DNA from: Chloroflexota bacterium
GTDB lineage: Bacteria; Chloroflexota; Anaerolineae; Anaerolineales; VGOW01
Direction: 5' to 3'
Assembly (NCBI GenBank): GCA_016875735.1
Contig: VGOW01000013.1
Coordinates: 3,564 to 67,563, forward strand
Length of the DNA stretch: 64,000 nucleotides
In this document: in pieces, positions 2,414-45,061 of the stretch
Layout of the letters: each line of letters begins with the position of its first letter
Numbering within the stretch: the stretch's first letter is position 1
Notes under the pieces: generated by a model
The model's database searches: none
Told to the model about the DNA's origin: nothing
The model's input: the letters and a program-made list of their open reading frames with translations, nothing else
Translations under genes and position numbers: made by a program

Positions 2414-2535
2414 AGCGGCTAAATCATCAACCGCCTAGCGGGGCAAGGCATGGAGATGGAGCGAAGGCTCTTCGGCTGATGACAGTGGACATGAGAGGTT
2501 AAGATAGCACATTCTCATAATTGAGCAAATGCGCA

Positions 2536-2544
2536 TGATAAAAT
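2536..2544 (+). promoter_or_regulatory. Candidate extended -10 box (TGATAAAAT) 9 nt upstream of the pcrA ATG
   Basis: 'tgataaaat' at 2536-2544, ATG at 2554. The same 9-mer recurs at 23030-23038. Confidence 0.35.
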
Positions 2545-2553
2545 CAACGCGCA

Positions 2554-4758
2554 ATGCCCGACCTCCTCTCCGGCCTCAACCCCCAACAACTCAACGCGGT
2601 CACCGCCGATCCCGGCCCCACCCTCATCGTGGCCGGCCCCGGCTCCGGCAAGACCCGCGTGCTCACCCACCGCATCGCCTATCTTGTGCAGGAGGGCACG
2701 CCGCCGTTTCGCATCATGGCCGTCACCTTCACCAACAAAGCCGCCCGCGAAATGCGCGAGCGCGTGGAGCGATTGCTCGGCGGCGCGCTCGGCGGACTCG
2801 CCATCGGCACCTTTCACGCCATCTGCGCCCGCTTCCTCCGCCGCGAGGCCGAACACACCCATGTCACCCGCGACTTCGTCATCTTCGACGACACCGATCA
2901 ACTCGCCCTCGTGAAACAGGCAATGGAGCGATTGCAGCTCGACGAGAAGCAATACCGCCCGCAGACTCTGCTCGGCGCGATCTCCAAAGCCAAAAACGAA
3001 CTCATCCCGCCCGATGAATATCAGGCCGGCACCTATTTTGCCGAGATCGCCGGGCGCGTTTACCTCGAATATCAAAAACTCTTGCGGGAGAACAACGCCT
3101 TCGACTTCGACGATCTGTTGGCTGAAGCGGTGTATCTCTTCCGCCATCACCCCGACGTGCTGACGAAGTATCAGCGCTCATACGATCACGTTCTCGTTGA
3201 CGAATTTCAAGACACGAACACCGCGCAATATGTGTTGCTCAAACTGCTCACGACCACGACGAGAAACCTGTACGTCGTGGGCGACCCCGATCAGTCGATT
3301 TACAAATGGCGCGGGGCCGACTATCGCAACGTCCGCCGCTTTCAGGACGACAACCCCGACGCGCAAACCATCCTCCTCGAACAGAACTACCGCTCCACTC
3401 AACTCATTCTCGACGCGGCCACCGCCGTGATCGACCGCAACAAGAATCGCACGCGCAAGCAGCTTTTCACCGAGCGCGGCGGCGGCGCGAAGATTCAGTT
3501 TCACGAAGCCTACAACGAGGAAGACGAAGCGCAGTACGTCATCCAAACCATCGCCGCGCTCGCCCGGCGCGACGATCTGAATCCCAGCGACGCGGCGATC
3601 ATGTACCGCACCAACGCGCAGTCGCGCGCCATCGAAGACGCCTTCGTGCGCGCCGGTCTGCCCTATCGCATCGTCGGCGCGCAGCGCTTTTATGGCCGCC
3701 GCGAAGTGAAAGACATCATCGCCTTCCTTCGCCTCACTCACAACCCCGCCGACAGCGTCAGCCTTCTGCGCGTGATCAATGTGCCCCCACGCGGCATCGG
3801 CGGCAAAACCATCGAAACCCTTCAAGCCGCCGCCGAACGGGCCGAGATTCCTATGTCGGTCATCGTCCGCGATCTCGGTTTGAATCGGCTCAACAGCAAA
3901 TATGCGGGCGAGTTCAAGGGAAAGGCCGGGGCGGCGCTCAGTGAGTTCGGAGAGATGCTCAATGGCTGGGTGGCGATTCGAGAGTCGGCGCCCGTCGCTA
4001 AATTGATCGATCAGATTCTCTCCGACACCGAATACCGCCGCTACATCAACGACGGCACTGAAGAGGGCGAAGACCGTTTAGAAAACGTGATGGAACTGCG
4101 CGGCGCCGCCGCCGAAGATGAAACCGTTTCGCTCTCGGCCTTCCTCGAGCAGGTGGCCCTCGTGGCCGACGCCGACACGAACACCGGCGCCAGCGGCCCC
4201 ACCCTGCTCACCCTGCACGCGGCCAAAGGGCTTGAGTTTCCGGTCGTGTTCATCACCGGCCTCGACGACGGCGTGCTTCCGCACCAACGCTCGTTCGAGG
4301 ACGCCGAAGAGATGGCCGAAGAGCGGCGGCTGATGTACGTGGGCATCACTCGCGCAAAGGATCGACTCTTCCTCACCCGCGCTCATCGCCGCGCGCTCTA
4401 CGGCAACTACGATGTGAGCAACCCTTCGAGATTTCTCGACGACATTCCCCGCCATTTGCTCACCGGGCAGATTGCGAAAAAGAAAAGCGGCGCCGAGTCT
4501 GCTTACGCCCGAATGATCTCGTGGGACGCCGATACACGATCCGGCAGGAGCGAGACCCGCTCCCCCAACCGCGAATCGATCCAAGCCGACTCTCGTTATC
4601 GAACCGGCCAACGAGTCAAACATTCCATGTTTGGCGAGGGCCTGATTATCGAAAGCAAAGGCGCGGGCGACGATGAAATCCTCGTCATCGCTTTCGAGGG
4701 CACGGGCATCAAACGTCTTGCAGCCAACATGGCAAACCTCACCCTGCTGAAAGGATAG
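2554..4758 (+). CDS. pcrA: UvrD/PcrA-family ATP-dependent DNA helicase
   Basis: 734 aa. Motifs 'AGPGSGKT', 'DEFQDTN', 'QNYRST', 'TLHAAKGLEF', 'YVGITRAK'. Confidence 0.9.
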   Translation: MPDLLSGLNPQQLNAVTADPGPTLIVAGPGSGKTRVLTHRIAYLVQEGTPPFRIMAVTFTNKAAREMRERVERLLGGALGGLAIGTFHAICARFLRREAEHTHVTRDFVIFDDTDQLALVKQAMERLQLDEKQYRPQTLLGAISKAKNELIPPDEYQAGTYFAEIAGRVYLEYQKLLRENNAFDFDDLLAEAVYLFRHHPDVLTKYQRSYDHVLVDEFQDTNTAQYVLLKLLTTTTRNLYVVGDPDQSIYKWRGADYRNVRRFQDDNPDAQTILLEQNYRSTQLILDAATAVIDRNKNRTRKQLFTERGGGAKIQFHEAYNEEDEAQYVIQTIAALARRDDLNPSDAAIMYRTNAQSRAIEDAFVRAGLPYRIVGAQRFYGRREVKDIIAFLRLTHNPADSVSLLRVINVPPRGIGGKTIETLQAAAERAEIPMSVIVRDLGLNRLNSKYAGEFKGKAGAALSEFGEMLNGWVAIRESAPVAKLIDQILSDTEYRRYINDGTEEGEDRLENVMELRGAAAEDETVSLSAFLEQVALVADADTNTGASGPTLLTLHAAKGLEFPVVFITGLDDGVLPHQRSFEDAEEMAEERRLMYVGITRAKDRLFLTRAHRRALYGNYDVSNPSRFLDDIPRHLLTGQIAKKKSGAESAYARMISWDADTRSGRSETRSPNRESIQADSRYRTGQRVKHSMFGEGLIIESKGAGDDEILVIAFEGTGIKRLAANMANLTLLKG

Positions 4759-4761
4759 ATA

Positions 4762-4853
4762 TCGGAAGTCAGAAGATAGAAGTCAGAAATCGGAAGTCAG
4801 AAGAGTCTTTCTGGCTTCTGACCTCTGACTTCCGACTTCTGACCTCTGACCTC
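4762..4853. repeat. Heptamer-word hairpin (word 'gaagtca/gaagata') between pcrA and galE
   Basis: Left arm 'tcggaag|tcagaag|atagaag|tcagaaa|tcggaag|tcagaag'. Right arm is its imperfect reverse complement 'cttctgacctctgacttccgacttctgacctctgacc'. Confidence 0.85.
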
Positions 4854-4855
4854 TC

Positions 4856-5863
4856 ATGAATCTCCTCGTCACCGGCGGCGCGGGCTACATTGGCTCGGCC
4901 ACCGCCGCCGAACTCATCGCCGCCGGGCACACCGTCACCGTCTTCGACAACCTCTCGCGCGGCCACCGCGCCGCCATCCCGCCCGAAGCCTGCTTCGTTC
5001 ACGGCGACATTGGCGACCGAATGGCGCTGGCCAAAGTGTTTGCCTCCGGCAACTTCGACGCCGTCCTCCATTTCGCCGCGCTCATCGAAGCCGGAGAATC
5101 GATGAAAGACCCCGGCCTCTTTTTTCGCAACAACGTGGCCTATTCGAACAACGTCATCGAGGCTGCCGTGAAAGCGGGCTGTCTCAAATTCGTGCTCTCC
5201 TCCACGGCCGCCATCTTTGCCGCCAGCGACGAGCCTCTGCGCGAAGACTCGACCATCGCCCCCGTCAACACCTATGGCGAAACCAAATTGATGATCGAGA
5301 CCATGCTCAAATGGTACGGCCAGGTTCACGGGTTGCGATACGCCTGCCTTCGCTACTTCAACGCCGCCGGAGCGGCTCCGAATCGCGGCGAGGCCCACCA
5401 CCCCGAAAGCCACCTCGTCCCGCGCGTCCTCCATGTGGCGCTCGGCCAAGCCGAGTCCGCCGCCATTTTCGGCGCAGATTATCCGACCCCCGACGGCACG
5501 TGCATCCGCGATTACATTCACATTGTTGATCTCGCGCAAGCGCATGTGCTGGCTGTGGAAGCGTTGAATGAAAAACCGACTCTCATTTACAATCTTGGCA
5601 ACGGGCAGGGCTATTCGGTGCGCGAAGTGATCGAGGCCGCGCGCGCCGTCACCGGCCACCCGCTCCCTGTCGTCGAACAGCCGCGCCGCCCCGGCGACGC
5701 GCCGCGCCTCGTCGCCTCCTCCGAAAAAATCCGCCGCGAACTCGGCTGGACTCCACGCCACCCCTCGCTTCACGACATCATCGCCAGCGCGTGGGAGTGG
5801 CATCGGGGGCACCCCAACGGCTATGAGCCTTCAGCGATCAGCACTCAGTCGTTAGGCCGCTGA
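4856..5863 (+). CDS. galE: UDP-glucose 4-epimerase
   Basis: 335 aa. 'VTGGAGYIGS' Rossmann motif, 'YGETK' catalytic YxxxK, full-length GalE-like. Confidence 0.9.
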   Translation: MNLLVTGGAGYIGSATAAELIAAGHTVTVFDNLSRGHRAAIPPEACFVHGDIGDRMALAKVFASGNFDAVLHFAALIEAGESMKDPGLFFRNNVAYSNNVIEAAVKAGCLKFVLSSTAAIFAASDEPLREDSTIAPVNTYGETKLMIETMLKWYGQVHGLRYACLRYFNAAGAAPNRGEAHHPESHLVPRVLHVALGQAESAAIFGADYPTPDGTCIRDYIHIVDLAQAHVLAVEALNEKPTLIYNLGNGQGYSVREVIEAARAVTGHPLPVVEQPRRPGDAPRLVASSEKIRRELGWTPRHPSLHDIIASAWEWHRGHPNGYEPSAISTQSLGR

Positions 5864-5889
5864 ACACTGATCGCTGATTGCTGACCGCT
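5829..5889. repeat. Word hairpin ('gatcagc' family) overlapping the galE 3' end
   Basis: 'cttcagcgatcagcactcagtc ... ctgaacactgatcgctgattgctgaccgct'. It encodes the last galE residues (..SAISTQSLGR). Confidence 0.7.
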
Positions 5890-7044
5890 ATGAAACTCGC
5901 CCTCAACGGCTGGTTCTACGATCAACCGCACACCGGCAGCGGCCAATATCTGCGCGGCCTGCTCGATCACCTCCCCCTCGCCGCGCCCGATATTGAGATC
6001 ACACTCATCGCGCCTCGGCCCATTCAACTCGAATCCAATCACGCCTCCCGCCTCCCGCTCCACGCCTCCCGCTCCACGCCCGACGCCGCGCGCTCGAACC
6101 TCTCCAAACTTAAATTCGAGCAGCTCGACTTCCCCGCCGCTTGCAAACGCATCAACGCCGATCTCGCCCACATCCCGTATTGGGCGCCGCCCCTCGCCTC
6201 CCCCGTTCCGTTCGTCGCCACCATTCACGATCTCATCCCCCTCCTCATCCCCGAATACAATCGCGCCCTCAAAGCCCGCTTCTACAACGCCCTCGTGTCG
6301 GCGGCCACACCCGGCGCGGCTCACCTCATCGCCGATTCCGACTCCTCGCGCAATGACATCATCCAGCGCCTCCGCGTTCCGCCGGAAAAAGTGACTGCCA
6401 TTCACCTCGCCGTCGGCCCCGAATACAAGCCCGCGCCCGACTCTCCCCGCGACGCCGTCATTCGACAAAAATACAATCTGCCCGACTCATACGTCCTCTA
6501 CCTCGGCGGATTCCAGCCGCACAAAAACGCGCGCAGCCTCCTCGCCGCGTGGACGTGGTGCGACGGCTCCATCGGCGAGCAATATCCGCTCGTCATCGCC
6601 GGAAAACTTCCCGCGCGCGGCGATCGTTTCCACGACGATCTTCCGGCTTACGCGAAACAACTCGGCATCGCCGAGAGTGTCCGCTTCATCGGCCCCGTCG
6701 CCGAAGAGGACAAGCCCGCGCTCTATCGCGGCGCGGCCTGTTTCGTTTTCCCGTCTCGATACGAAGGCTTCGGCCTTCCGCCGCTCGAAGCCCTTGCCTG
6801 CGGAGCGCCCGTTGTCACCACCGCTTTCGCTTCCATCCCCGAAGTGGTGGGCGAGGCCGCTTACCTCGTCCGCGATCCCGACGACACGCGCTCGCTCGGC
6901 GCGGCCATCCTCGCCGTCGTCGTCAACCCCGATGTGGTGGATCGACTCGCCACAGCCGCGCGCGCGCAAGCTCAAAAGTTCAGTTGGCAAAGGACTGCGG
7001 AAGAAACTGCCGCTGTTTACCGAAAAGCATTGCGGCGCGGATAG
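5890..7044 (+). CDS. Glycosyltransferase family 4 (GT-B)
   Basis: ATG at 5890; the track start at 5878 is a TTG inside the repeat. 'SRYEGFGLPPLEALACGAPVV' EX7E motif. Confidence 0.8.
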   Translation: MKLALNGWFYDQPHTGSGQYLRGLLDHLPLAAPDIEITLIAPRPIQLESNHASRLPLHASRSTPDAARSNLSKLKFEQLDFPAACKRINADLAHIPYWAPPLASPVPFVATIHDLIPLLIPEYNRALKARFYNALVSAATPGAAHLIADSDSSRNDIIQRLRVPPEKVTAIHLAVGPEYKPAPDSPRDAVIRQKYNLPDSYVLYLGGFQPHKNARSLLAAWTWCDGSIGEQYPLVIAGKLPARGDRFHDDLPAYAKQLGIAESVRFIGPVAEEDKPALYRGAACFVFPSRYEGFGLPPLEALACGAPVVTTAFASIPEVVGEAAYLVRDPDDTRSLGAAILAVVVNPDVVDRLATAARAQAQKFSWQRTAEETAAVYRKALRRG

Positions 7045-7082: not shown

Positions 7083-9692
7083 ATGTCTCCCGCCGCAAAC
7101 CCCACGCCGAAGATGGCAGATCGCTTTCTTTCCTTCATCACTCATCGCTCACGGCAAAGCCGTCCTTTAGGATCGCTCATCGTTACATTTCTCGCCTTCT
7201 TCGCCCTCTACGCCTTCACCCTCTCGCCCGGCCTCCTCCCCGCCGACTCTGGCGAGTTCCAAACCGTCGTTCCATTGCTCGGCGTCGCCCACCCGCCGGG
7301 CTTCTCGCTCTACATTCTGCTCGGCAAACTCTTCACCGGCCTCGTCCGCATTGGCAGCTACGCTTATCGCCTCAACCTCTTCTCTGCGTTCACCTCAGCC
7401 ATCACCCTCGCCCTCGTCACCCTCGTCGTCCAACGCCTCACTCGCCCCACTCCTCACGCCCCACTCCTCACGAATCTGCCCGGCTTCCTCGCCGCCTTCA
7501 TACTCGGCGTCTCCACCACCTTTTGGTCGCAAGCCACCACCGCCAACATTCGCAGTCTCATGGCCCTGCTCACCGCGCTGGCCGTGTGCGCCCTCATCGA
7601 ATACCAACTCAACCCCACCATCAACCGACTCGCCTTTCTCGCCTTCACCCTCTCCCTCGCCGTCGTTCATCACCTCTCCATTGCCTTCATCGCCATCACT
7701 CTCGCCGCCGCCGCCATCGTGTTCACCCCCTCACCCCGTCATCTTGTCACCCCAAAGATTCTCCTCAAACTCAGTGTGTCTATTGTTGCCCCTCTCGCCG
7801 TTCTCCTCTACCTCCCCATTCGCGGCGCGGCGGGCGCCTACCTTGCCCCGCCCGGCCTCAACACCCTCAACGGATTCCTGCAACACGCGCTCGGCCTCGG
7901 CTTCGGCGGCGACTTCTTTTACTTCGCCAACCTCTCCGCCCTCCCCGATCGCCTCGCCATCCTCCTCAACATCTTCCTCTTTCAATTCAACGCGCCGACT
8001 CTGATCCTCCTCGCCATCGGCCTCCTCCTCTTTTTCTTCCGCGATCCGAAACTTGCCGCCGCTCTCACCCTCGCTTTCGCCGTTCACTGCGTTGTCGCCA
8101 TCACCTACCGCGCCCCGCAAACCGTCGAATACCTTTTGCCCGCCTACGTCATCCTCGTCATCACCGCCCTCAGCGGTTGGCAATTCATCTTTGACCGTTG
8201 GCCTTCCCGCTTTGAAGTTTGGACTTTGAAGTTTGCCCTTTATTGTTCATTCTTCATTTCCTCATTGCTCATTCTGTTTCGCAACTACCCCGCCTACAAA
8301 ACCCTCTCCCACGACGACTCCACTCGCGCCCACGCCGAAGGCCTCCTCCTCGCCGCGCACCCCAACGCCCTCATCCTTGCCAACTGGCACTACGCCACGC
8401 CGCTCTGGTATCTGCAGCGCATCGAAGGCGTCCGCCCCGATGTCACCGTCGAATACGTTTTTCCGCAGGGCGCATCGCTCACCCAAAACTGGGTGGATCA
8501 GATCAACGCCAACGCCGCCGACCGCCCAACCATCGTCACCAATTTTTATCCGACAGAATACGCTTCACTGCCCCATCGCTTCCTCCCCATCCTCACCGCA
8601 TTGCCCGCATGGCAAGCCGCCACCGACCCCCTCACCGATCCGATCCCCGCCGCGCCCACTCACGAGGGTGGTTGGGCCTTTCTCAGCGGCGGCCCCATTT
8701 CACAGAGCCCGCTCACACAAAACGAATCCTTCACCGTCCAAATCTTTTGGCAAGCGCCCGAGTCACCCACCGATATTAACTTCTTCGTGCAGCTCATCGG
8801 CCCCGATGGATTGCTCTACGGCCAAGCCGACGTGTTCCACCCGGCGGGCAAACTCACGCCGCATGAAATCATTTCAGATCGACTCGCCCTCGCCGTCAAC
8901 GCCGATGCGCCCCTCGCCGACGGCTACTCGCTGGTCACCGGCGCGTATCTCCCCGATGGCCGCCGCCTCGCCCCCGACTTCACCGAGATCGCCGCACTCG
9001 CCGTCATCCCCTCGACCTCGGCTCCCTCCACCCTCCACCCTTCACTTCTCCCCAACCTCATCGCCGGATACGATTACGATCTCTCCATTCCCGACTCTCC
9101 CCGCCTCTACCTCCACTGGCGACTCGATGGGCAATCGCACAACCTCACCCTCGCCGATTCAACCGGCGCATTCACCCAGCCCATCGCCCTCCCGCCTCTC
9201 ACCGGTTATATCACCACCTCTCACGACCTCCCTCCCGGCTGGCAGACTACCACCCTCACCGCTGACGGCTTCTCATTCCGCATTCCGCATTCCGCATTCC
9301 GCATTACAGATCGCCGCCTCTCCTTCGGCCCGCTCACCCTCGTCGGCGCGGCCATCACCAAAGAAAGCGACGGCTCGTATCGGGTTGACCTCGACTGGAT
9401 GGCGAACGAGCCGATCATCAATGATCACATCGTCAAAGTTGATCTCGTCGGCGAAAATTATTCGTGGCGCGATCAGTCGGACTCCGTCCCCGCGGGTGGC
9501 GCAATCCCCACCCTCAAATGGATCCCCGGCATCCTCATTCACGACCGCCACCGATTGAGAATGCTTCAGCCCACGCTTGCCGCTTTTCAACTCGCCGTGT
9601 ACGATCACTTCACCCAACGCAACCTCCCCCTCCTCGATTCCCGCCTCGCCCTCCTCGGCCCCACTGTTCCCCTCGGCGTCGTTCAGCCATAA
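7083..9692 (+). CDS. DUF2723-type polytopic membrane protein (GT-C-like, putative glycosyltransferase) with C-terminal beta-rich modules
   Basis: In-frame ATG at 7083. The track ORF from 6549 is an Arg-rich read-through overlapping the GT4 gene. 'LLPADSGEFQ..GVAHPPGFSLY' and many TM segments. Confidence 0.7.
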   Translation: MSPAANPTPKMADRFLSFITHRSRQSRPLGSLIVTFLAFFALYAFTLSPGLLPADSGEFQTVVPLLGVAHPPGFSLYILLGKLFTGLVRIGSYAYRLNLFSAFTSAITLALVTLVVQRLTRPTPHAPLLTNLPGFLAAFILGVSTTFWSQATTANIRSLMALLTALAVCALIEYQLNPTINRLAFLAFTLSLAVVHHLSIAFIAITLAAAAIVFTPSPRHLVTPKILLKLSVSIVAPLAVLLYLPIRGAAGAYLAPPGLNTLNGFLQHALGLGFGGDFFYFANLSALPDRLAILLNIFLFQFNAPTLILLAIGLLLFFFRDPKLAAALTLAFAVHCVVAITYRAPQTVEYLLPAYVILVITALSGWQFIFDRWPSRFEVWTLKFALYCSFFISSLLILFRNYPAYKTLSHDDSTRAHAEGLLLAAHPNALILANWHYATPLWYLQRIEGVRPDVTVEYVFPQGASLTQNWVDQINANAADRPTIVTNFYPTEYASLPHRFLPILTALPAWQAATDPLTDPIPAAPTHEGGWAFLSGGPISQSPLTQNESFTVQIFWQAPESPTDINFFVQLIGPDGLLYGQADVFHPAGKLTPHEIISDRLALAVNADAPLADGYSLVTGAYLPDGRRLAPDFTEIAALAVIPSTSAPSTLHPSLLPNLIAGYDYDLSIPDSPRLYLHWRLDGQSHNLTLADSTGAFTQPIALPPLTGYITTSHDLPPGWQTTTLTADGFSFRIPHSAFRITDRRLSFGPLTLVGAAITKESDGSYRVDLDWMANEPIINDHIVKVDLVGENYSWRDQSDSVPAGGAIPTLKWIPGILIHDRHRLRMLQPTLAAFQLAVYDHFTQRNLPLLDSRLALLGPTVPLGVVQP
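7133..7185. repeat. Intragenic repeat with 34-nt core shared with 10393-10456
   Basis: 'tcacggcaaagccgtcctttaggatcgctcatcg' flanked by 'ctcatcg' words. Translated 'HRSRQSRPLGSLIV'. Confidence 0.75.
8211..8276. repeat. Intragenic heptamer words ('tttgaag/tttggac', then 'ttcattg' type)
   Basis: 'tttgaagtttggactttgaagtttg' shares 18 nt with the reverse complement of hairpin 28146-28200. Followed by 'ttattgttcattcttcatttcctcattgctcattctg'. Confidence 0.7.
9273..9307. repeat. Intragenic tandem heptamers 'gcattcc' x5
   Basis: 'tcattcc gcattcc gcattcc gcattcc gcattac', translated 'SFRIPHSAFRIT'. The same word occurs at 43568-43595. Confidence 0.85.
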
Positions 9693-9698: not shown

Positions 9699-12600
9699 AT
9701 GCGCGCCGCCTTTCGTCATTCGTCATTCGTCATTCGCCATTTGCCTCTCCTCGCTCTCGCCCTTCTCGCCATCTACCCTATCCTCGCCTCCGGCCTCCCC
9801 ACCACTGGCGACGGCCTAATTCACTACTATCGTTTCGCCGAACTCGATTGGCACATCCGCCATGGCGATCTCTACCCGCGCTGGTTCGACAACATGGGCT
9901 ACGGTTTCGGAATGCCCGTGCTCAACTTTTACGCGCCGCTCTCTTATTACATCCCCCTCCTCTTCCGACTCTTCAACCTATCCCTCGCCACATCACTGCA
10001 ACTCGGTTATGCCCTCGCCCTCGCCCTCGCCCTCCTCGGCGCGCACCAATGGGCCTCCGCCCTAACCACCCAACCACCGAACCACCGAACCACCCAACCA
10101 CCCAGCCACCTAACTGCCCTCCTCGCCGCCGCCGCGTACGGTCTCGCCCCCTACTTCTACTTCAACATCTTTCATCGCGGCGCATACCCCGAGACATGGG
10201 CGCTCGCCCTCGCCCCATGGCTCCTCTGGTCAGCGCACAAACTCGCCGAACAGCCGACCGCTCTTCGCTCCTCCCTCTTCACCGTTCTCCTCTCCGCCCT
10301 CATCCTCACCCATACCCTCTCTGCCCTCATCTTCATCCCGATCATCTCCGTTTACCTCATCGCCCTTTCCATCACTCATAACCTTGTTGCCCGTCGTTTG
10401 TCGTTCACGGCGAAGCCGTCCTTTAGGATCGTTCATCGCTCATCGCTCATCGTTTATCCCTTCGCCCTCTCCGCCTTCTTCATCCTCCCCCTCGCCTTCG
10501 AGTCGCAGTTCATCCAACTCTCTCGCGCCTTCTCCACCGGCGATCTCGATTACCATCGCAACTTCCTCAAACTCGCCGCCCTCCTCTCCTCGCCCCCCAA
10601 CTTCGATCCCCGCCTCGTCTTCAATGCCATACCCCCCAGCCTCGGTTGGCCGCAACTCCTGTTGGCGCTGTCAGCGGTTGGCGGTTGGCTGTTCGCCGCT
10701 CGCCGCAAATCACCGCTCGCCTCCCGCTCTCTCTTCATTGTTCATTGTTCATTGTTCATTCTTCTTTCCCTCCTCGCCCTCTCTATCACCGAGCCCCTCT
10801 GGAATCTTTTTCCCTTCGCCCGCTTCATCCAATTCCCATGGCGGCTCATCGGCCCCGCCTCCCTCTTCCTGGCCGCCCTCGCCAGCAATTCTCCAATCTC
10901 CAATCTCAACTCTCAAACATCAAAAACCCTCTTTCTCTCCGCCTCTATTGCCGCCTTCTTTTTCTTTTCCCTCCCTTGGACATATCACGCCGACTTCGCC
11001 CTCCACGCCCCACCCTCCACGCCCCACGCTCCAACCGACACCATCCGCTACGAAACCACCTCCGGCCAACTCGGCGCCGCCTCCACCGCCGAATACCTCC
11101 CCCGCTGGGTCGCCGCGATTCCCGATCCCAATACCCTCCTCCCACAATTCGCCGCCACCGAGACTCCCTCTCGACTCGCCCCGCTCCCCGAATCCGTTTC
11201 GCTCCACGCTTCACGCTTCACGCTTCACGCTCAAGAAATCATTTATGACTCCGCGTCCTCCTTCACCGCCGCCTTCAACCTCTTCTACTTTCCCGGCTGG
11301 GCGGCGACTCTCGACGGCGACCCGATCGGCATTCAACCCTCCTCGCCGCATGGGCTGATCACCGTTGCCCTGCCTGCCGGAACGCACACCCTGCGCCTCT
11401 CGCTCCAACCCACCGCGCCACAACGTATCGGCGTCCTTGTCTCCCTCGCCGCGCTGCTCATACTCATCCTTCGCCTCGTCCGCCGCCCCTCATCCACTGC
11501 TCACCGTTCACCGCCCGCCAATCGCCAATCACCAATCACCAATTACCAGCCACCGATCATTGTGTCATTGTTCATTGCCTCATTGCTCCTCGCCCGCGCC
11601 CTCTACTTCGACCGCGCCGAAACCATCTTCCACCACACCGACGTTATCCCCAATCCGCTCTCCGTCAACATCGAAGATCAACTCGAACTCCTCGGCTACG
11701 AATTTCCAAAAGGGACTCAATTCGCATCCGACTCCCAACTACCAATCACCCTCTACTGGCGGGCGCTCGCGCCGCTCACCACCGATTACTCCACCACCGT
11801 CCAACTCGCCGATCGCTTCGGCAACCGCTTCGGCCAATCCGACAGCCAGCATCCCAACGGCGTCCCCACCTCCCGCTGGGCGCTCAATCAATACGCTCGC
11901 GACTCGCACACACTCGTTCCCCTCATCGGCGCGCCCCCCGGCGTTTACAAATTACTGATCACCGTTTACGCCTCGCGCCCCCTCAGCATCCTTCAAGATT
12001 CTGCGCCCGCCGGAATCGAATATGAACTCGGCGCGGTGACCATCACTCGCGGCCAGCCCCAGCCGCCCGGCCCCCTCACGCTGACCGACTCTGATCTGGC
12101 AACCGACTCCGTTTCCGTCGGCGATCAGCTGGCCTTCACCCTCTTGTGGAACTCCGGCGACAAGCCCCTGCCCGTTCTCACCGCGCGAGTGTTGCTGGCC
12201 GACTCCGCCGATCAAACGATCTTCTCTGCCGACCTTCCTCCTTCCGGAGAAGATTACCCGACGAGCCAATGGGCGCTCAACGAACTCGTCCGCTTCCCAT
12301 TCAGTGTCGGCCTCCCGCCCGATCTGCCCGGCGGAGCGGCGCGAGTCCGCATCCTTCTGCTCGACGCCAACGGCATGATCTGGGCCGGGCCATTCGACAT
12401 CGGCATGATCACCATCGCCGTGCCGGAGCGCTCGTATATCATTCCGCCGATGCAGGTTCGAGTCGATCACGATTTTGCGAAAGCGATCCGTTTGCTGGGG
12501 TACGACCTTGCGCCCGACTCGATCACACTCTACTGGCAATCGCTCGCGCCAGTGGCGCAGAGGCTCACGGCCTTCGTGCATCGGCTCGACGACTCGGGCG

Positions 12601-12770
12601 CGTTCGTGGCCGGGCACGATGCCCCGCCGAGTCGGCCTGCCACCGGCTGGCTTCCCGGCGAAGTGGTGGCCGACTCGCATCCCATTTCTGCGGGCGAGCG
12701 TTTCGAAATTGGACTCTATGACCCAATGACAGGGGAAAGATTCGGTGAAGTTTTTGTAACACCCCGTTAA
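9699..12770 (+). CDS. PTPS-related-domain polytopic membrane protein (GT-C-like) with C-terminal beta-rich modules
   Basis: 1023 aa. 'YPRWFDNMGYGFGMPVLNFYAPLSYY'. Clear paralog of 38108-41074. Contains at least 7 word-repeat insertions. Confidence 0.65.
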   Translation: MRAAFRHSSFVIRHLPLLALALLAIYPILASGLPTTGDGLIHYYRFAELDWHIRHGDLYPRWFDNMGYGFGMPVLNFYAPLSYYIPLLFRLFNLSLATSLQLGYALALALALLGAHQWASALTTQPPNHRTTQPPSHLTALLAAAAYGLAPYFYFNIFHRGAYPETWALALAPWLLWSAHKLAEQPTALRSSLFTVLLSALILTHTLSALIFIPIISVYLIALSITHNLVARRLSFTAKPSFRIVHRSSLIVYPFALSAFFILPLAFESQFIQLSRAFSTGDLDYHRNFLKLAALLSSPPNFDPRLVFNAIPPSLGWPQLLLALSAVGGWLFAARRKSPLASRSLFIVHCSLFILLSLLALSITEPLWNLFPFARFIQFPWRLIGPASLFLAALASNSPISNLNSQTSKTLFLSASIAAFFFFSLPWTYHADFALHAPPSTPHAPTDTIRYETTSGQLGAASTAEYLPRWVAAIPDPNTLLPQFAATETPSRLAPLPESVSLHASRFTLHAQEIIYDSASSFTAAFNLFYFPGWAATLDGDPIGIQPSSPHGLITVALPAGTHTLRLSLQPTAPQRIGVLVSLAALLILILRLVRRPSSTAHRSPPANRQSPITNYQPPIIVSLFIASLLLARALYFDRAETIFHHTDVIPNPLSVNIEDQLELLGYEFPKGTQFASDSQLPITLYWRALAPLTTDYSTTVQLADRFGNRFGQSDSQHPNGVPTSRWALNQYARDSHTLVPLIGAPPGVYKLLITVYASRPLSILQDSAPAGIEYELGAVTITRGQPQPPGPLTLTDSDLATDSVSVGDQLAFTLLWNSGDKPLPVLTARVLLADSADQTIFSADLPPSGEDYPTSQWALNELVRFPFSVGLPPDLPGGAARVRILLLDANGMIWAGPFDIGMITIAVPERSYIIPPMQVRVDHDFAKAIRLLGYDLAPDSITLYWQSLAPVAQRLTAFVHRLDDSGAFVAGHDAPPSRPATGWLPGEVVADSHPISAGERFEIGLYDPMTGERFGEVFVTPR
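9714..9741. repeat. Intragenic tandem heptamers 'cgtcatt' x4
   Basis: 'cgtcatt cgtcatt cgtcatt cgccatt' at codons 6-14 (FRHSSFVIRH). Confidence 0.85.
10064..10114. repeat. Intragenic heptamer words ('ccaacca/ccgaacc' family)
   Basis: 'aaccacccaaccaccgaaccaccgaaccacccaaccacccagccacctaac' encodes 'TTQPPNHRTTQPPSHL', which is absent from the paralog. Confidence 0.8.
10393..10456. repeat. Intragenic repeat with 34-nt core shared with 7133-7185
   Basis: 'tcacggcgaagccgtcctttaggatcgttcatcg' plus 'ctcatcg' words. Translated in a different frame from the 7133 copy ('SFTAKPSFRIVHRSSLIV'). Confidence 0.75.
10733..10764. repeat. Intragenic tandem heptamers 'gttcatt' x4
   Basis: 'cttcatt gttcatt gttcatt gttcatt cttc' (SLFIVHCSLFIL). 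Confidence 0.85.
10886..10928. repeat. Intragenic heptamer words ('ccaatct' family)
   Basis: 'caattctccaatctccaatctcaactctcaaacatcaaaaacc'. The same word occurs in the 44999 hairpin and in acnA at 50133. Confidence 0.75.
11204..11233. repeat. Intragenic tandem heptamers 'acgcttc' x4
   Basis: 'ccacgcttcacgcttcacgcttcacgctca' (HASRFTLHAQ). The same word occurs in hairpin 26668-26750. Confidence 0.85.
11498..11588. repeat. Intragenic run of heptamer words ('caatcac' then 'cattgtt')
   Basis: 'ccaatcgccaatcaccaatcaccaattaccagccaccgatcattgtgtcattgttcattgcctcattgctc' with period 7 throughout. Confidence 0.8.
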
Positions 12771-14496: not shown

Positions 14497-14571
14497 CGTT
14501 TGAAACGATGAACGATGAGCGATGAATGATGAACGACGAATTCATCGTTCATCGTTCCGCCTTCATCGTTC
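14497..14571. repeat. Heptamer-word hairpin ('gatgaac' family) filling the whole purA / sugar-transferase intergenic gap
   Basis: 'cgtttga|aacgatg|aacgatg|agcgatg|aatgatg|aacgacg|aattcat|cgttcat|cgttccg|ccttcat|cgttcc'. Confidence 0.85.
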
Positions 14572-14572
14572 C

Positions 14573-15988
14573 TCAATAGGCTCCATTCCCGAACAGCACG
14601 TGCGGGATCGTTCTCAGAATGATCGTCAAATCGAGCGAGAGCGACCAGTTTTCGATGTAGTAAATATCCAGCAAGCACATTTCGTCGAAGGTGAGATCGC
14701 TGCGGCCCGATATTTGCGGCAGGCCGGTGATGCCCTGCGGCGCGGACAGCCGCTCGCGCTGCCACGCTTCATACTTCTCCACTTCCGAAGGCAGAGCCGG
14801 GCGCGGCCCCACCAAACTCATTTCGCCGCGCAGAACGTTAATGAACTGCGGCAGTTCGTCGATGCTCGTGCGGCGGATGAAACGGCCCACCCGCGTGCGG
14901 CGCGGATCGTTTTTGATTTTAAACAGCGGGCCGCTGGCTTCGTTCATATCGCTCACTTCCGCCAGCGCTTCTTCCGCGCCCTGCTTCATCGAGCGAAACT
15001 TGATCACCTCGAACGGCTTGCGGTGCTGGCCGATGCGCCTCTGCCGGAAAAACACCGGGCCCGGCGAATCGAGTTTAATGGCGGCGGCCACCACGAGGAA
15101 TAACGGCCACAACACGGCGAACAGAACTGCCGTTAGAACCACGTCCATCGCGCGCTTCGTCAATCGAGCCGAGCCGGGCAGGGTGTGTTCCTTCACGCCA
15201 ATGAGCGGGATGCCGCCCAGATCGTCCACATCCACCCGGCTGAGGCTCAACTGAAAGATATCGGGCACCACGCGGGGGCGCACGCCCAATCGCTCGCATG
15301 CGCTCACCAGTCCCACAATTTTGCGCTGATACATCCATGGCAGGGTGACGAACACCTCATCCACGCGCTCGGTTTTGATGATCGACTCCACGCAATCCAA
15401 TCCGCCGAGAGCGCGGAAGCGGCCAATATCGGTTGCGCCTTTCACCGGGTCGTCGTCCACGAAGCCGACGACCGAATAGCCGAGATCGGGGCGGGCGACC
15501 ATCGTGCGCATCACCGTGCGCCCCACCTCGCCGGCCCCCACGATGAGCACGCGTTGGACGCCGACTCCGCGCTTCCGCAGCCGGGCCTCCACTTGCCGAC
15601 GAACGGCCCGCGCCGCGCCGAGCAATAGCACAATGAGCACGCCGTCGTAAAAGAATAGAAGGCGCGAATAGGCCAGCGGCCTGAGCCCGAAGGTGATGGC
15701 GACGACGATGACGATGCTGATGAGCGCGGCGTTGCCCACGCGCACGATCTCGGAGATGAGCGAACTGCCGCGCCGGGCGGTGTATCCGCCGTTGGCGGCG
15801 AAGGCGGCAAGGAAGATGGCGGTGAGCGCAGAGAACAGACTGAAGTATGACGAGAGCGGGTTGTAAAAGCCCGGCTCCACACTGCGGAAGAGTTCGGCCT
15901 CGTAACGCAGATACCACGCCAGCGCCGAGGCCAGCAGAATGAGCAGCGCATCCAACGCGGGCGAGGCCCAGCGCAGCGCGTGTTTCAT
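14573..15988 (-). CDS. Polyprenyl-phosphate glycosylphosphotransferase (bacterial sugar transferase, WbaP/EpsL-like)
   Basis: 'FFRQRRIG..FEVIKFRSM', 'DELPQFINVLRGEMSLVGPRP'. Start at 'MKHALRW' (15988), forming an ATGA overlap with the upstream GT4 stop. Confidence 0.85.
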   Translation of the reverse strand: MKHALRWASPALDALLILLASALAWYLRYEAELFRSVEPGFYNPLSSYFSLFSALTAIFLAAFAANGGYTARRGSSLISEIVRVGNAALISIVIVVAITFGLRPLAYSRLLFFYDGVLIVLLLGAARAVRRQVEARLRKRGVGVQRVLIVGAGEVGRTVMRTMVARPDLGYSVVGFVDDDPVKGATDIGRFRALGGLDCVESIIKTERVDEVFVTLPWMYQRKIVGLVSACERLGVRPRVVPDIFQLSLSRVDVDDLGGIPLIGVKEHTLPGSARLTKRAMDVVLTAVLFAVLWPLFLVVAAAIKLDSPGPVFFRQRRIGQHRKPFEVIKFRSMKQGAEEALAEVSDMNEASGPLFKIKNDPRRTRVGRFIRRTSIDELPQFINVLRGEMSLVGPRPALPSEVEKYEAWQRERLSAPQGITGLPQISGRSDLTFDEMCLLDIYYIENWSLSLDLTIILRTIPHVLFGNGAY

Positions 15989-17127: not shown

Positions 17128-17140
17128 GGAGGGGATTATA
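17128..17140 (-). promoter_or_regulatory. TATAAT-N7-GTG: candidate leaderless promoter of the GT4 gene
   Basis: Minus strand reads 'tataat cccctcc GTG'. Confidence 0.4.
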
Positions 17141-17142
17141 CC

Positions 17143-17250
17143 GTGACAAGATGAAAGGATGACAAGATGACAGCATGGCACGATGACAGGATGCTCGAAG
17201 TGGTAGCCGATACAACCTGTCATCCTGTCACCCACTCATCGTGCCATCAT
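17143..17250. repeat. Octamer-word hairpin ('gacaagat' family)
   Basis: 'gacaagat|gaaaggat|gacaagat|gacagcat|ggcacgat|gacaggat' pairs with 'catcctgtcacccactcatcgtgccatcatg'. Related to 30815-30901. Confidence 0.8.
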
Positions 17251-18357
17251 GTTTCGATACACTTTCACTGTCTCATCGGCCACACGCTTTTGGGTGAACA
17301 GCGCCAGCATCCGCTCGCGGCCTTTGGCTCGCAGGTCGGCGCGGAGGGAGTCGCTCGATTGCAATTGGCGCAGGGCATCGGCGAGGGCGGGCGCGTTACC
17401 TTCGGGGACGATCAGCCCGGCATCGCCGATCACGTTCGGGATCTCACCGCAGGTGGAGCCGACGACAGGGACGCCGCAGGCCATCGCTTCGACGAGCACG
17501 CGGCCAAATTGCTCTTTCCAGTTCGGTTGAGTGATCGAAGGGAGAACGAGCGCGTCGATGGAGTGAAGGAAGTTTGGGAATTCGGTGGAGGGCATCCACG
17601 CGCGAACGCTGAGGCGGCTTCCCATGCCGCAATCGTTCGCGAGTTGGATCAAAGCCTCACGCCGGGGCCCACTGCCTACGAGAACGAGTCGAGCATGGTT
17701 GTCGAGTCCGGCAACGGCGCGAATCAAAATGTCCGCCCCTTTTTCGGGGACGAAGCGACCAGCGTAGGCGATGGTGAAACCCTCACCCCTTTCCCCTCTC
17801 CCAAAGGGAGAGGGGGACAGGGGGTGAGAGTACAAGTTTTCGTCCACGCCGAATTGCGGGATGACGGCGACCGGCCCGCGATAGCCTTTGGCCCGCCAAA
17901 CTTTTTCGGAATCGTGATTGCCGCAGATGGCGTAATCGGCGCGGCGGAGAACGCGCGACTCGATGGCGTTGAAGGGAAAGGGGTAGCGGCGGTTGAGGTT
18001 CTGCCACGAGAAGAAGAGGGCGCGGGCGCTGTGCTTGCGCGCCAGCCGAAGCGCGTGCCACGTGGCGAGGTTATACGGCTCTTCGTCGATGTGGGCAATG
18101 TCGGGTTGCACTTCAGCGAAACGCTTGGCGAGTCGCGGGTAGAAGTGAAGATGAAAGTTCCCATTGAGCGCCATCGGCTCCACGACGAGTCGGTAGCCCT
18201 TCGTGTACGAGCGTTCCAGTTTGAGTGCGCCGCGCTCGTCGCGCCATTCGGGCGGCACGATCACCGTCAGTTCGACATCCTCGTGGGCGGCCATCTCTTC
18301 CAGCTTGCGCTGGTACGCGCCGACGACGCAGGCTTTGGAAATCATAAGCACACGCAT
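17236..18357 (-). CDS. Glycosyltransferase family 4
   Basis: Start at 'MRVLMISKACVVGAY' (18357). 'EQFGRVLVEAMACGVPVVGS'. Contains an in-frame palindromic element. Confidence 0.8.
   Translation of the reverse strand: MRVLMISKACVVGAYQRKLEEMAAHEDVELTVIVPPEWRDERGALKLERSYTKGYRLVVEPMALNGNFHLHFYPRLAKRFAEVQPDIAHIDEEPYNLATWHALRLARKHSARALFFSWQNLNRRYPFPFNAIESRVLRRADYAICGNHDSEKVWRAKGYRGPVAVIPQFGVDENLYSHPLSPSPFGRGERGEGFTIAYAGRFVPEKGADILIRAVAGLDNHARLVLVGSGPRREALIQLANDCGMGSRLSVRAWMPSTEFPNFLHSIDALVLPSITQPNWKEQFGRVLVEAMACGVPVVGSTCGEIPNVIGDAGLIVPEGNAPALADALRQLQSSDSLRADLRAKGRERMLALFTQKRVADETVKVYRNMMAR
17780..17828. repeat. GC-rich palindromic element, full copy, in-frame inside the GT4 gene
   Basis: 'ccctcacccctttcccctctccc aaa gggagagggggacagggggtgag', translated 'HPLSPSPFGRGERGEG'. 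Confidence 0.8.
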
Positions 18358-18370
18358 GAGCAGGATTATA
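18358..18370 (-). promoter_or_regulatory. TATAAT-N7-ATG: candidate leaderless promoter of the GT4 gene
   Basis: Minus strand reads 'tataat cctgctc ATG'. Confidence 0.4.
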
Positions 18371-18372
18371 AA

Positions 18373-18440
18373 GTTCAAACTCCAAACTTCAAACTCCAAA
18401 CTTCAAACTCCCAATTTGAGGTTTGAAGTTTGGAGTTTGT
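18373..18440. repeat. Heptamer-word hairpin ('caaactc/caaactt' family) in a divergent promoter region
   Basis: 'gttcaaa|ctccaaa|cttcaaa|ctccaaa|cttcaaa|ctcccaa|tttgagg|tttgaag|tttggag|tttg'. Thirty-five nt are identical to the reverse complement of 28146-28200. Confidence 0.9.
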
Positions 18441-18452
18441 TGTTTTCGAGTC

Positions 18453-26650: not shown

Positions 26651-26667
26651 GTCGTAATGAGAAGAGC

Positions 26668-26750
26668 GTGGAGGGTGAGGCGTGGGGCGTGAAGCGAATC
26701 TATCGGGTTTCGCCCCACACCCGACGCTTCACGCATTACGCTTCACGCCT
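26668..26750. repeat. Word hairpin ('gcgtgaa' family) overlapping the methyltransferase stop
   Basis: 'gtgaggcgtggggcgtgaagcg ... cgccccacacccgacgcttcacgcattacgcttcacgcc'. Confidence 0.75.
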
Positions 26751-27373
26751 TTCGCCAACAGCGCCAGCCCGCCGCCAACTTTTTCCACGCACTCGAACTG
26801 AGTGAGCCCGGCGGCGGCGAACAATGCGCGCGCATCATCGGCGCTGAGGCGGCGATGCGATTCGGCGGCGCGCGCCCAATTGACGAGCGACACGCGGGCC
26901 ACGCCGTCGAGTTGGCGCTCATCGGCCAGCGACTCGGCGGCGGCGAGAGTGAGGTTCGGCGAAGGGTTGAGCATGACGACAATGCCGCCCGGTTTGATCA
27001 CGCGGGCCATTTCGCGCAGGCCCACCGCCGGATCGTGAATGAGGAAAAGGACGTTGGTCGCCAACGCCGCATCGAACGATCCATCCTCGAAGCGCAGTTT
27101 TTGGACGTTGCCGATCTCGAAAGTGACGCCGCCGATTCCGGTGGCGAGATACTGAGCGCGATCCACCATCAGCGGGTCGGCGTCAACGCCGATCACCGTG
27201 TGCCCGTCGCGCGCCAAGTGGCGGGCCAACGCGCCGGGGCCGCAACCCACATCGAGCGCGCGCGAATGCGGCGGCAGGGCGGCGAACCGGGCAAAGGATT
27301 GGAGAATGGCCTCCCAACCCGGAGTCGATTGCACTTGAGAGAAATAGTCGGCGAAGGATGGTTCACTGTTCAT
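26729..27373 (-). CDS. Class I SAM-dependent methyltransferase
   Basis: Start at 'MNSEPSF' (27373), forming an ATGA overlap with the coaX stop. 'ALDVGCGPGAL'. The track's 345-aa form overlaps coaX and is rejected. Confidence 0.75.
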   Translation of the reverse strand: MNSEPSFADYFSQVQSTPGWEAILQSFARFAALPPHSRALDVGCGPGALARHLARDGHTVIGVDADPLMVDRAQYLATGIGGVTFEIGNVQKLRFEDGSFDAALATNVLFLIHDPAVGLREMARVIKPGGIVVMLNPSPNLTLAAAESLADERQLDGVARVSLVNWARAAESHRRLSADDARALFAAAGLTQFECVEKVGGGLALLAKGVKRNA

Positions 27374-28140: not shown

Positions 28141-28145
28141 GATCA

Positions 28146-28200
28146 ACTCCAAACTTCAAAGTCCAAACCTCAAATTGGGAGTTTGAAGTTTGGAGTTTGG
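28146..28200. repeat. Heptamer-word hairpin ('caaactt' family), inverted copy of 18373-18440
   Basis: 'actccaaacttcaaagtccaaacctcaaattgggagtttgaagtttggagtttgg'. It encodes the panC C-terminal tail. Confidence 0.9.
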
Positions 28201-30810: not shown

Positions 30811-30814
30811 GTTC

Positions 30815-30901
30815 CTGACAAGATGGCAGGGTGAGGGGATGACAAGATGATCAGGGTTGAAACGATCATCTTGCCATCGTGTCACCCATTCATCTTGTCA
30901 A
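30815..30901. repeat. Octamer-word hairpin ('gacaagat' family)
   Basis: 'ctgacaagatggcagggtgaggggatgacaagatgatcaggg ttgaaac gatcatcttgccatcgtgtcacccattcatcttgtcaac'. Confidence 0.8.
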
Positions 30902-31783: not shown

Positions 31784-31903
31784 GGCTTTCTTCTCCTTTC
31801 GAGTAAGATGCCCGTTCGAGGATGGGTGGTTGAGTGTTGCTGTCGTCTCGTTCGCATGAAGCGATGCGAGCGACGCCCAAATTGTAGCACGAATAGATGC
31901 CTC

Positions 31904-31934
31904 TTGACTCTCCCCCTGCGGGAGGCTGTATAAC
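31904..31934 (+). promoter_or_regulatory. MerR-type promoter: TTGACT, 19-bp spacer with dyad, TATAAC
   Basis: 'ttgact ctccccctgcgggaggctg tataac'. The spacer contains 'ctccc..gggag'. It lies 24 nt upstream of the MerR-family gene. Confidence 0.55.
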
Positions 31935-31958
31935 AAGATCGATCCGCGGAGAACACAC

Positions 31959-44996: not shown

Positions 44997-44998
44997 TT

Positions 44999-45050: not shown

Positions 45051-45061
45051 ATTTGAGATCG

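Follow-up and report, generated by a model that had tools for sequence, protein, structure and literature searches.

Short heptanucleotide arrays at persistent sites of a probable GT-C membrane glycosyltransferase gene in an Anaerolineales lineage

The stretch of DNA considered here, hereafter the window, comprises 64 kb of contig VGOW01000013.1 from a Chloroflexota bacterium of the order Anaerolineales. The sequence agrees at 100% with a Chloroflexi metagenome-assembled genome (protein FJ030_05895). Its open reading frame (ORF) 9699-12770 encodes a probable membrane glycosyltransferase and contains 9-10 tandem arrays of 7-8 bp units, as delimited with Tandem Repeats Finder (TRF), which together encode 116 residues, or ~11% of the protein (Table 1). 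An initial annotation made from the letters of the sequence had proposed that the same heptamer words are inserted in frame at several positions of this ORF. TRF places an array at or adjoining every position it named, and the translations it quoted are exact. Most of these arrays do have heptamer units, whereas the unit of the 10064 array is 8 bp; two of the proposed starts, 10393 and 11498, turned out to mark weak two-unit runs just upstream of the TRF arrays, the others being placed correctly or nearly so. Arrays that it had reported in neighbouring genes (8210-8275, 9274-9305 and 43568-43593) are likewise real.

Table 1. Genes, arrays and recurrent array sites of the window
Feature	Position (strand)	Unit and copies	Encoded sequence	Context
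GT-C gene	9699-12770 (+)		1023 aa	GT-C-type (PTPS-related / TMEM260-like) polytopic membrane glycosyltransferase
Array	9707/9712-9741 (+)	TTCGTCA x4.3, 95% matches	AAFRHSSFVIRHL, aa 3-15	N-terminal tail before transmembrane helix (TM) 1, predicted cytoplasmic
Array	10064-10114 (+)	AACCACCC x6.4, 8-bp unit	LTTQPPNHRTTQPPSHLT, aa 122-139	TM2-TM3 loop, predicted cytoplasmic
Composite array	10393-10452 (+)	two GTCGTT(T/C) units, small hairpin ACGGCGAAGCCGT, ATCGCTC x3.6 (10428-10452)	SFTAKPSFRIVHRSSLIV	loop and TM7 start
Weak array	10674-10693 (+)	GCGGTTG x2.9	AVGGWLF	TM8 end; GGTTGGC-type arrays at this site in L008, L009 and L039
Array	10734-10764 (+)	TTCATTG x4.4	FIVHCSLFILL, aa 346-356	within TM helix 340-359, high model confidence; third-position G+C 0.27
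Array	10886-10917 (+)	CAAATCT/CCAATCT x4.6	aa 396-407	TM10-TM11 loop, predicted cytoplasmic
Array	10999-11033 (+)	CCCTCCACGCCCCA (14-mer) x2.5	ALHAPPSTPHAP, aa 434-445	outside loop after TM11
Array	11200-11231 (+)	CGCTTCA x4.6	SLHASRFTLHA, aa 501-511	beta hairpin of outside domain
Array	11518-11559 (+)	CCAATCA x6	ANRQSPITNYQPPIIVSLFIASL, read together with next array	linker 595-616, predicted cytoplasmic; abuts next array
Array	11557-11585 (+)	TCATTGTG x3.8		start of TM13 (617-637)
TMEM260-like GT-C gene	7083-9692 (+)			upstream of gene 9699-12770; PF11028, E 6e-23
Six arrays in gene 7083-9692	7443-7472, 7723-7741, 8210-8275, 8561-8591, 9024-9045, 9274-9305	CATTCCG x4.6, 100% matches (9274-9305)		
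Colinear paralogue	38108-41074 (-)		988 aa	
Array	43568-43593 (+)	CATTCCG x3.7	NIPYSAFRIL	small membrane protein gene 43113-43943; word common to 9274-9305
Array	6040-6095 (+)	7-, 14- and 21-nt periods	HASRLPLHASRSTPDAARS, aa 55-73	GT4 glycosyltransferase gene 5878-7044
Array	50139-50171 (+)	33-nt copy of 10886 array	LRLEIGEL	antisense in aconitase gene 49389-52166 (-)
Array	50844-50878	AGCAATC x5, sense word		second array in aconitase gene 49389-52166 (-); variable loop
Intergenic inverted pair	4757-4854	(GAAGTCA)n then (TTCTGAC)n		hairpin -54 kcal/mol
Further intergenic inverted pairs	14504-14574, 17144-17252, 18376-18445, 26665-26756, 28145-28205, 36505-36553, 44995-45054			
Recurrent site	N-terminus			array in 11/16 homologues
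Recurrent site	window aa 237-258			array in 12/16 homologues
Recurrent site	window aa 320-357			array in 13/16 homologues
Recurrent site	window aa 396-421			array in 11/16 homologues
Recurrent site	window aa 501-511			array in 7/16 homologues
Recurrent site	window aa 594-633			array in 12/16 homologues
Recurrent site	window aa 677-686			array in 6/16 homologues

Arrays of this kind are strongly over-represented throughout the window. At period 7 we counted 34 arrays of 3-6.6 copies each against 2.15 in dinucleotide shuffles, a ~16-fold excess, and the corresponding figures were 14 against 1.4 at period 8 and 11 against 0.35 at period 14. Merging yielded 47 arrays, 28 within genes and 19 in intergenic or gene-edge DNA (6.6 kb). 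The pair of adjacent GT-C genes accounts for 10% of the coding DNA but for 15 of the 28 intragenic arrays (binomial p = 9e-9), and the density in gene 9699-12770, 2.9 per kb, equals that of the intergenic DNA.

The G+C content at third codon positions (GC3) is 0.55 within the arrays of gene 9699-12770 and 0.76 elsewhere in the gene, most individual arrays having values of 0.27-0.57. The recurrence of the same words, claimed by the initial annotation, holds for most arrays in the sense that they have partners elsewhere in the window at the nucleotide level. Thus the 10886 array is 97% identical over 33 nt to its antisense copy in the aconitase gene, with the variant units in identical order; the words of the 10064 array occur again at 19485 and 37364; the 11200 array matches the hairpin arm 26724-26748; and the 10999 array is related both to 6058-6086 and to the hairpin arm 26666-26685. 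In the upstream GT-C gene, the 8210 array (8210-8241) matches intergenic hairpin arms at 18383 and 28150 (96%) and the 9274 array matches that at 43568. Moreover, ~40 nt at 10402-10441 are ~90% identical to 7146-7185 of the neighbouring gene, the two copies being read in different frames (KPSFRIVH versus SRPLGSLI); this segment is made up of array units, a small hairpin ACGGC-GAA-GCCGT and CCTTTAGG. Judging from the 7-nt period, the drop in GC3, the copies in another frame or in antisense and the lack of arrays in distant homologues, the arrays are primarily DNA elements and not peptide motifs.

By hand check, six of eight words are stop-free in the sense orientation only, because their complement contains TGA, CATTCCG and AACCACCC being stop-free in both; this limit therefore accounts for the single orientation of the intragenic arrays and for part of the C-rich skew. 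The argument has already been made for TAACTGA repeats in PMC4679880, and according to PMC4679880 and PMC4692102 translation of heptamer repeats is possible only where their orientation is free of stops. The TCA/TGA content of the words was also considered as a mechanistic signature and discarded, since it is only ~2-fold enriched, less than the AT-rich trinucleotides AAT and CAA.

The intergenic arrays form inverted pairs that nearly fill their spacers and whose long hairpins have folding energies of -19 to -54 kcal/mol; seven of the eight pairs tested fold at z <= -3.8 (to -7.6) and the remaining one, 17140-17256, at z -2.6. Two hairpins, 18368-18447 and 28140-28210, are built from (CAAACTC/CAAACTT)n and its complement and are near-identical to each other, the loop CCCAATTTGAGG included. 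A search for inverted partners of the intragenic arrays of gene 9699-12770 found none, and the RNA folds of these arrays have z >= 0 except for 10725-10775 (z -2.3, minimum free energy -0.7 kcal/mol); we therefore rejected the notion that the coding arrays are intact hairpin elements. A further 37-nt inverted repeat (TGACAAGATGGCAGGG...), 81% complementary, was noticed at 30816-30900, where genes 29908-30885 and 30890-31960 adjoin. It has the 8-mer words TGACAAGA/TGACAGGA in common with the hairpin 17144-17252, and the syntenic spacer carries ACAGGGAA/GACAAGGT arrays in two related loci, L003 and L004.

The position of the arrays in the protein was read from an AlphaFold2 (AF2) model (predicted local distance difference test 86, predicted template modelling score 0.82; alignment of 36 homologues), which has 13 TM helices and two outside domains, of which one is a beta domain (residues 429-572) and the other a large beta-rich C-terminal domain (residues 638-1023). 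Inside and outside loops were assigned from the AF2 helices and the positive-inside rule applied to alternating loops, the presumed inside loops holding 12 Lys/Arg and no Asp/Glu. On this model the arrays occupy the N-terminal tail, five loops or linkers (124-136, 235-240 together with the TM7 start, 397-405, 429-444 and 595-616), the beta hairpin 500-518 and two of the TM helices, 340-359 and 617-637. Six of the eight non-TM array sites are predicted to be cytoplasmic, so that the surface exposure expected of a phase-variable product is largely lacking from the model. Within the membrane domain, identity of homologues to the P0001 residue is 0.18 at array positions versus 0.52 at non-array positions (p = 3e-22), and the gap fraction is 0.22 versus 0.03. 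Low conservation and structural placement thus bear out the proposal that loops or TM segments tolerate the repeats as inserted or replacing sequence, with the refinement that only the 10064 array is clearly a net insertion (+11 aa relative to the paralogue; most homologues have RDQFDS without an insert) and that most others swap sequence of similar length.

The colinear paralogue, 46% identical to the 9699-12770 protein, had been put forward as an internal control with ordinary sequence at the corresponding positions. TRF finds no period-7 or period-8 array in it, and it reads WARDQFESPTAGMVAG where the window protein has the 11-residue-longer TTQPPNHRTTQPPSHL segment. Its use as a control is nevertheless valid for one paralogue group only, as the clade contains at least four groups of this GT-C protein and three of them bear arrays at common sites. 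In the fourth group (the window paralogue, P0024-P0030 and P0035) the protein alignment has ordinary peptides at the array sites, the check at the DNA level covering the window paralogue alone. We rejected a stronger constraint on this array-free group as the reason for its state, since its within-group identity is 0.53, not above the 0.60 of the array-bearing group.

Those related loci that come from species-representative genomes bear the label Anaerolineales; a separate record, L001, is identical to the window over 8078 nt and probably represents the same data. A scan of metagenome contigs for near-identical strains brought up no sequence above 59% identity. Wherever the homologue reaches 40% identity, the loci carry 0.6-2.8 arrays per kb. 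Where the homologue is at most 37% identical the density is mostly 0-0.1 per kb, reaching 0.5, with a value of 0.77 in L058, and five other Anaerolineales loci (L042, L043, L045, L046 and L048) have none. The distant homologues themselves (<=37% identity, other lineages) are free of arrays and have unrelated residues at the array sites; equivalent residues lacking nucleotide periodicity, which the initial annotation would have taken as a sign of ancestral sequence, were not seen in them. In L058, an Acidobacteriaceae metagenome-assembled genome (MAG; CAWJXJ010000002.1), dense heptamer arrays lie outside the homologous gene at 1008-1306 and 4500-4579, with AGCTGAC-type words and GCACTTG/CTAAGTG as an inverted pair, which suggests that the heptamer-hairpin phenomenon recurs in unrelated lineages.

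Within the clade, TRF arrays mapped on an alignment of 16 homologues fall at hot spots (Table 1) that are common to orthologues, 55-62% identical to the window protein, and to two other paralogue groups at 43-51% identity. The words found at a given site differ among homologues either by one or two bases, as with TTCACGC, TTCACGT and TTGACGT at aa 501-511, where orthologues also carry the related words TTCACGT and ACGTTTG, or altogether, as with CATTGTT versus TTTGGGA. The vocabulary is nonetheless small, the 242 arrays of 20 related loci reducing to 89 canonical words, with CATTGTT used 21 times in 11 loci. The initial interpretation has to be refined in two further respects: the sites are of long standing, other words occupying them in orthologues 55-62% identical and in two other paralogue groups, and segments composed of an array plus its flank have been copied between sites and genes in other frames and orientations. 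Assembly artefact is an unlikely source of the pattern, since more than 15 independent assemblies have similar arrays at homologous sites, with all ORFs intact.

Pairwise comparisons show how the arrays change. Between L008 and L039 (92% amino acid identity) there are indels of 21, 18, 69 and 27 nt, each adjoining an array, and between L010 and L011 a 21-nt indel corresponds to exactly three CAGTTAT units (L010 coding sequence nt ~677, aa ~225), while the array-free control pair L042/L043, also at 92% identity, has none. Substitutions are ~2-fold commoner within arrays in the two closest pairs and 1.35-fold commoner in L010/L011. The L039 gene contains, at two sites and with 89% identity, a 120-nt composite in which 35 nt of unique spacer separate an AATACCC array from a TCATTGT array, and L008 lacks it at one of these sites; the second L039 composite is thus an ectopic copy anchored on a shared array. 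Comparable array-plus-flank copies were found in L004, L009 and L038.

Strain-level behaviour was followed among members of 90%-identity clusters. Of seven pairs at least 99% identical, P0001 versus P0152 included, six are free of indels and the seventh has a 5-aa (15-nt) in-frame deletion at a TTTGGGA array; all four pairs at 95-97% identity are indel-free, and indels appear at the linker arrays at 92-94% identity. Indels between relatives 89-92% identical are multiples of three with one exception, a paired 1-nt/4-nt offset in the linker arrays of L010/L011 that is possibly an alignment artefact. No frameshifts at arrays were seen among the cluster members inspected, and the breaks of split or partial alleles fall outside the arrays. 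The unit-number polymorphism with frameshifts expected of a contingency locus was thus not encountered in this small sample, which came without read-level data, and the comparisons argue against classical phase variation. P0001 and P0152, 99.5% identical, differ by paired changes at residues 296/298 (LLSSPP versus LRSPPP) and 409/410 (SKTLF versus STPLF), the latter directly 3' of the 10886-10917 array; these changes resemble short compensated frameshifts or homopolymer sequencing errors.

Gene 9699-12770 is genuine, conserved and under selection, and probably encodes a GT-C membrane glycosyltransferase. Database searches returned 169 homologues at E <= 1e-20, and D38, H42 and R45, all in the first outside loop, are invariant across the 36 homologues aligned. 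Matches of the protein to the TMEM260-like and PTPS_related families of Pfam are weak and under threshold; for PF10131 it reaches 16.0 bits where the cut-off is 26.4, whereas the paralogue passes with 33.5 bits, and a PF10131 hit is precomputed for many of the homologues. None of the four proteins searched against NCBIfam had a match. Foldseek hits in the PDB are mainly Ig- and macroglobulin-like and concern the C-terminal beta domains, the sole GT-C structural match, of full-length type, being AftD (6w98_A, TMq 0.28). In three orthologous loci the same order of genes is found, namely UvrD, GT4, TMEM260-like, the 9699-12770 gene, CBM48, purA, sugar transferase and GT4, which constitutes a conserved glycan-synthesis cluster.

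Several further features of the neighbourhood were observed. On the plus strand between 2554 and 12770 there is a C-over-G synonymous bias, C3/(C3+G3) climbing from 0.69 to 0.82, with the strongest values of the window in genes 7083-9692 (0.82) and 9699-12770 (0.77) and a GC skew that reaches -0.47; elsewhere in the window the ratio is 0.42-0.66 for most genes, and 0.70 and 0.67 in two. Across the three forward frames both GT-C genes have 1.5-3.6 stops per kb; in the other genes of the window, frame +1 mostly has 5-16 per kb and frame +2 has 0-14. The L004 orthologue of the UvrD-like helicase (2164-5526, 1120 aa) carries intein (Hint / Intein_splicing) domains that are absent from the window UvrD (2554-4758, 734 aa). 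The soluble GT4 protein has arrays at ~aa 43-73 in all four syntenic genomes, with different words in each (window 6040-6095; L002 6322-6384; L003 6331-6386; L004 6255-6282). Aconitase, a highly conserved soluble enzyme, has two translated heptamer arrays, and we rejected the idea that its AGCAATC array is a net insertion because it aligns without gaps to a variable loop of IRP1.

The explanation that we consider probable is that heptanucleotide arrays of the long simple sequence repeat (LSSR) or short tandemly repeated repetitive (STRR) type, specific to this lineage, settled as passengers in permissive sites of the GT-C genes. It draws directly on their periodicity and enrichment, their structural placement, the persistence of sites with turnover of words, the in-frame indels near arrays and the ectopic copies. 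At least nine permissive sites of gene 9699-12770 would have been colonised by a genome-wide family of short arrays (20-70 bp) that occur between genes as inverted pairs with long hairpins and of which, within genes, one arm would survive. Because 3 x 7 = 21 nt, an array is read in all three phases and gives a seven-residue peptide repeat (such as SLFIVHC or HASRFTL) in any frame of entry. Selection would keep arrays in place only at positions that accept a peptide of low information content, namely the N-terminal tail, short and presumably cytoplasmic loops, linkers and those TM helices that a hydrophobic heptad fits, and it would pass only changes that preserve the frame, either 21-nt steps of three units or other multiple-of-three indels. 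At such sites the arrays would be long-lived, their words turning over through slippage, take-over by mutated units and a gene-conversion-like ectopic copying of array plus flank between sites with a word in common. Tolerated passengers are the most likely status of the arrays, which are presumably neutral or slightly deleterious and without function in the protein; slippage would be the underlying mechanism.

Certain observations weigh against this explanation. The paralogue 38108-41074, equally polytopic, and its array-free group are no better conserved than the array-bearing group, and therefore permissiveness alone fails to explain why particular genes are affected. Persistence at identical sites in groups 43-51% identical, together with the small vocabulary, could reflect functional selection. 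The mechanism of slippage and conversion is deduced from sequence comparisons, the genome is covered over 64 kb, and the loop topology derives from AF2 helices and the positive-inside rule.

A contingency locus would make different use of the same repeats, gain or loss of a 7-nt unit switching the glycosyltransferase ON or OFF, or re-phasing the segments between arrays, so that the surface glycan varies and, for instance, phages are escaped. The genes do belong to a glycan-synthesis cluster, a nearly perfect array occupies codons 3-15, the classical 5' position, its 9712-9741 tract (codons 5-14, 4.3 copies at 95% matches) being short by the standard of hypermutable tracts, N-terminal arrays are the commonest and most length-variable across orthologues, all three forward frames are poor in stops, and heptamer simple sequence repeats (SSRs) are known to mediate phase variation in Haemophilus. 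This interpretation nevertheless seems to us quite unlikely. Array length is almost invariant among the closest relatives, indels preserve the frame with the single doubtful exception, and broken alleles break away from the arrays. Individual arrays are short, with 3-6 units, and most of them are imperfect; nine in one gene are more than a switch requires; and the loops concerned are mostly predicted to be cytoplasmic, so that in-frame changes would leave exposed epitopes unaltered.

Non-autonomous mobile mini-elements, copied and pasted by a putative clade-specific enzyme such as a RAYT (repetitive extragenic palindrome-associated tyrosine transposase)/IS200-like single-strand transposase or a template-switching activity, would turn the coding copies into translated insertions. 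Such elements would fit the identical order of variant units in unrelated genes, frames and orientations, the two near-identical hairpins with their loop, the 120-nt composite that appears de novo at the second L039 site, the restricted vocabulary common to several genomes and the sharp clade distribution. They are unlikely all the same, given that no transposase or other candidate enzyme was identified in the window, which was not systematically scanned for one, that target-site duplications and defined ends were not seen, that many different words take the place of a single conserved element, and that in L039 an array of the same word was already in place where the copy is anchored, as homology-driven conversion predicts. 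A bolder version may be entertained tentatively: an Anaerolineales subclade could possess an active copy-and-paste process, whether an enzyme or a specialised template-switching repair, that disperses heptamer cassettes with their unit order intact, both into spacers, where they would pair into hairpins, and into genes, irrespective of frame and orientation; in genes the cassettes would be translated mini mobile elements and would repeatedly rebuild GT-C loops and whole TM helices at fixed hot spots. Selection on the peptide or mRNA segment itself, for heptad TM helices, for cytoplasmic motifs or for rare AT-rich codons that pause translation during membrane insertion, appears very improbable. 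The sites do persist across orthologues and paralogue groups, the AT-rich codons are atypical for the gene (GC3 of 0.27-0.57 in most arrays) and lie at boundaries of cytoplasmic loops and TM helices, and a 7-aa period would suit a helical heptad; but the words at one site are replaced by unrelated ones that encode unrelated peptides, the same DNA has other reading frames elsewhere and recurs in intergenic hairpins and antisense in aconitase, and neither the array-free paralogue group nor any distant homologue carries arrays.

A DNA repeat with a non-triplet unit can exist within a working gene, where the usual assumption is that non-triplet simple repeats are kept out of genes or serve as on/off switches. 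A repeat that is read in three frames produces a heptad peptide independent of frame, and the arrays constitute a natural experiment on how much sequence information membrane helices and loops need. They also point to concerted evolution of short intragenic repeats by ectopic copying. In practical terms, arrays lower Pfam scores, as in the window protein, which stays under the PF10131 gathering threshold that the array-free paralogue exceeds, and they could mislead annotation, alignment and MAG assembly for a widespread freshwater and groundwater lineage.

Among known systems the closest are the LSSRs and the STRRs of Calothrix PCC 7601, with which the window arrays have in common head-to-tail 7-nt units in copies longer than chance, dispersal in several word families, over-representation, a patchy phylogeny and a proposed origin by slippage. 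In the strict sense STRRs belong to heterocystous cyanobacteria, and the arrays of this Anaerolineales subclade are therefore better assigned to the general LSSR class than to STRRs proper. In repeat-rich bacteria, heptanucleotides are documented as the most frequent class of LSSRs, and repeat units that are not a multiple of three are noted to be rare in ORFs (Mrazek et al. 2007, cited in PMC4679880 and PMC4692102). The window departs from the latter rule, 28 of its 47 arrays lying in genes, with 2.9 per kb in gene 9699-12770, and its intergenic copies are inverted pairs. The TAACTGA heptamer of marine Beggiatoaceae and some cyanobacteria offers a second precedent (MacGregor 2015, PMC4679880): its forward strand has stops in three frames, its reverse can be translated as an LSVISYQ repeat within ORFs, and in Beggiatoaceae it is the dominant word, found mostly in 5' untranslated regions, with ORF copies at protein ends and a mobile origin under discussion. 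The L010 array word CAGTTAT is a rotated reverse complement of it and encodes an SYQLSVI-type peptide; here, however, there are dozens of words, at internal sites that include TM helices and a beta hairpin and that are stable across orthologues.

Contingency loci of Haemophilus and Neisseria likewise have non-triplet SSRs in or near glycan-biosynthesis genes, and one of the arrays described here is at the 5' end of its ORF, but the present genes have many short imperfect arrays each, at sites conserved over deep divergence and in loops mostly predicted to be cytoplasmic, with no frameshifting length variants seen among the close strains compared. Repetitive extragenic palindromic sequences, bacterial interspersed mosaic elements and REPINs (REP/BIME/REPIN) resemble the spacer-filling inverted arrays in their long hairpins and in the dispersal of at least one hairpin as near-identical imperfect palindromes in intergenic spacers (18368-18447 and 28140-28210); the arms in the window differ in being 7-nt periodic, in belonging to many unrelated word families and in being translated singly within genes. 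The host protein resembles GT-C proteins (PF10131, PF11028, AftD) in its polytopic N-terminal domain, the invariant Asp of the first outside loop and outside beta domains similar to carbohydrate modules, and differs from them in remaining under the Pfam thresholds and in being 11% repeat-coded. Literature searches found no earlier description of heptamer arrays in Chloroflexi/Anaerolineae. Heptanucleotide repeats of the LSSR/STRR kind and a translated reverse-orientation heptamer are thus already known. New are the lineage of the host, a system of many words that forms inverted pairs between genes, an intragenic density equal to the intergenic one that extends to TM helices and a beta hairpin, and the persistence of sites with word turnover and ectopic copying.

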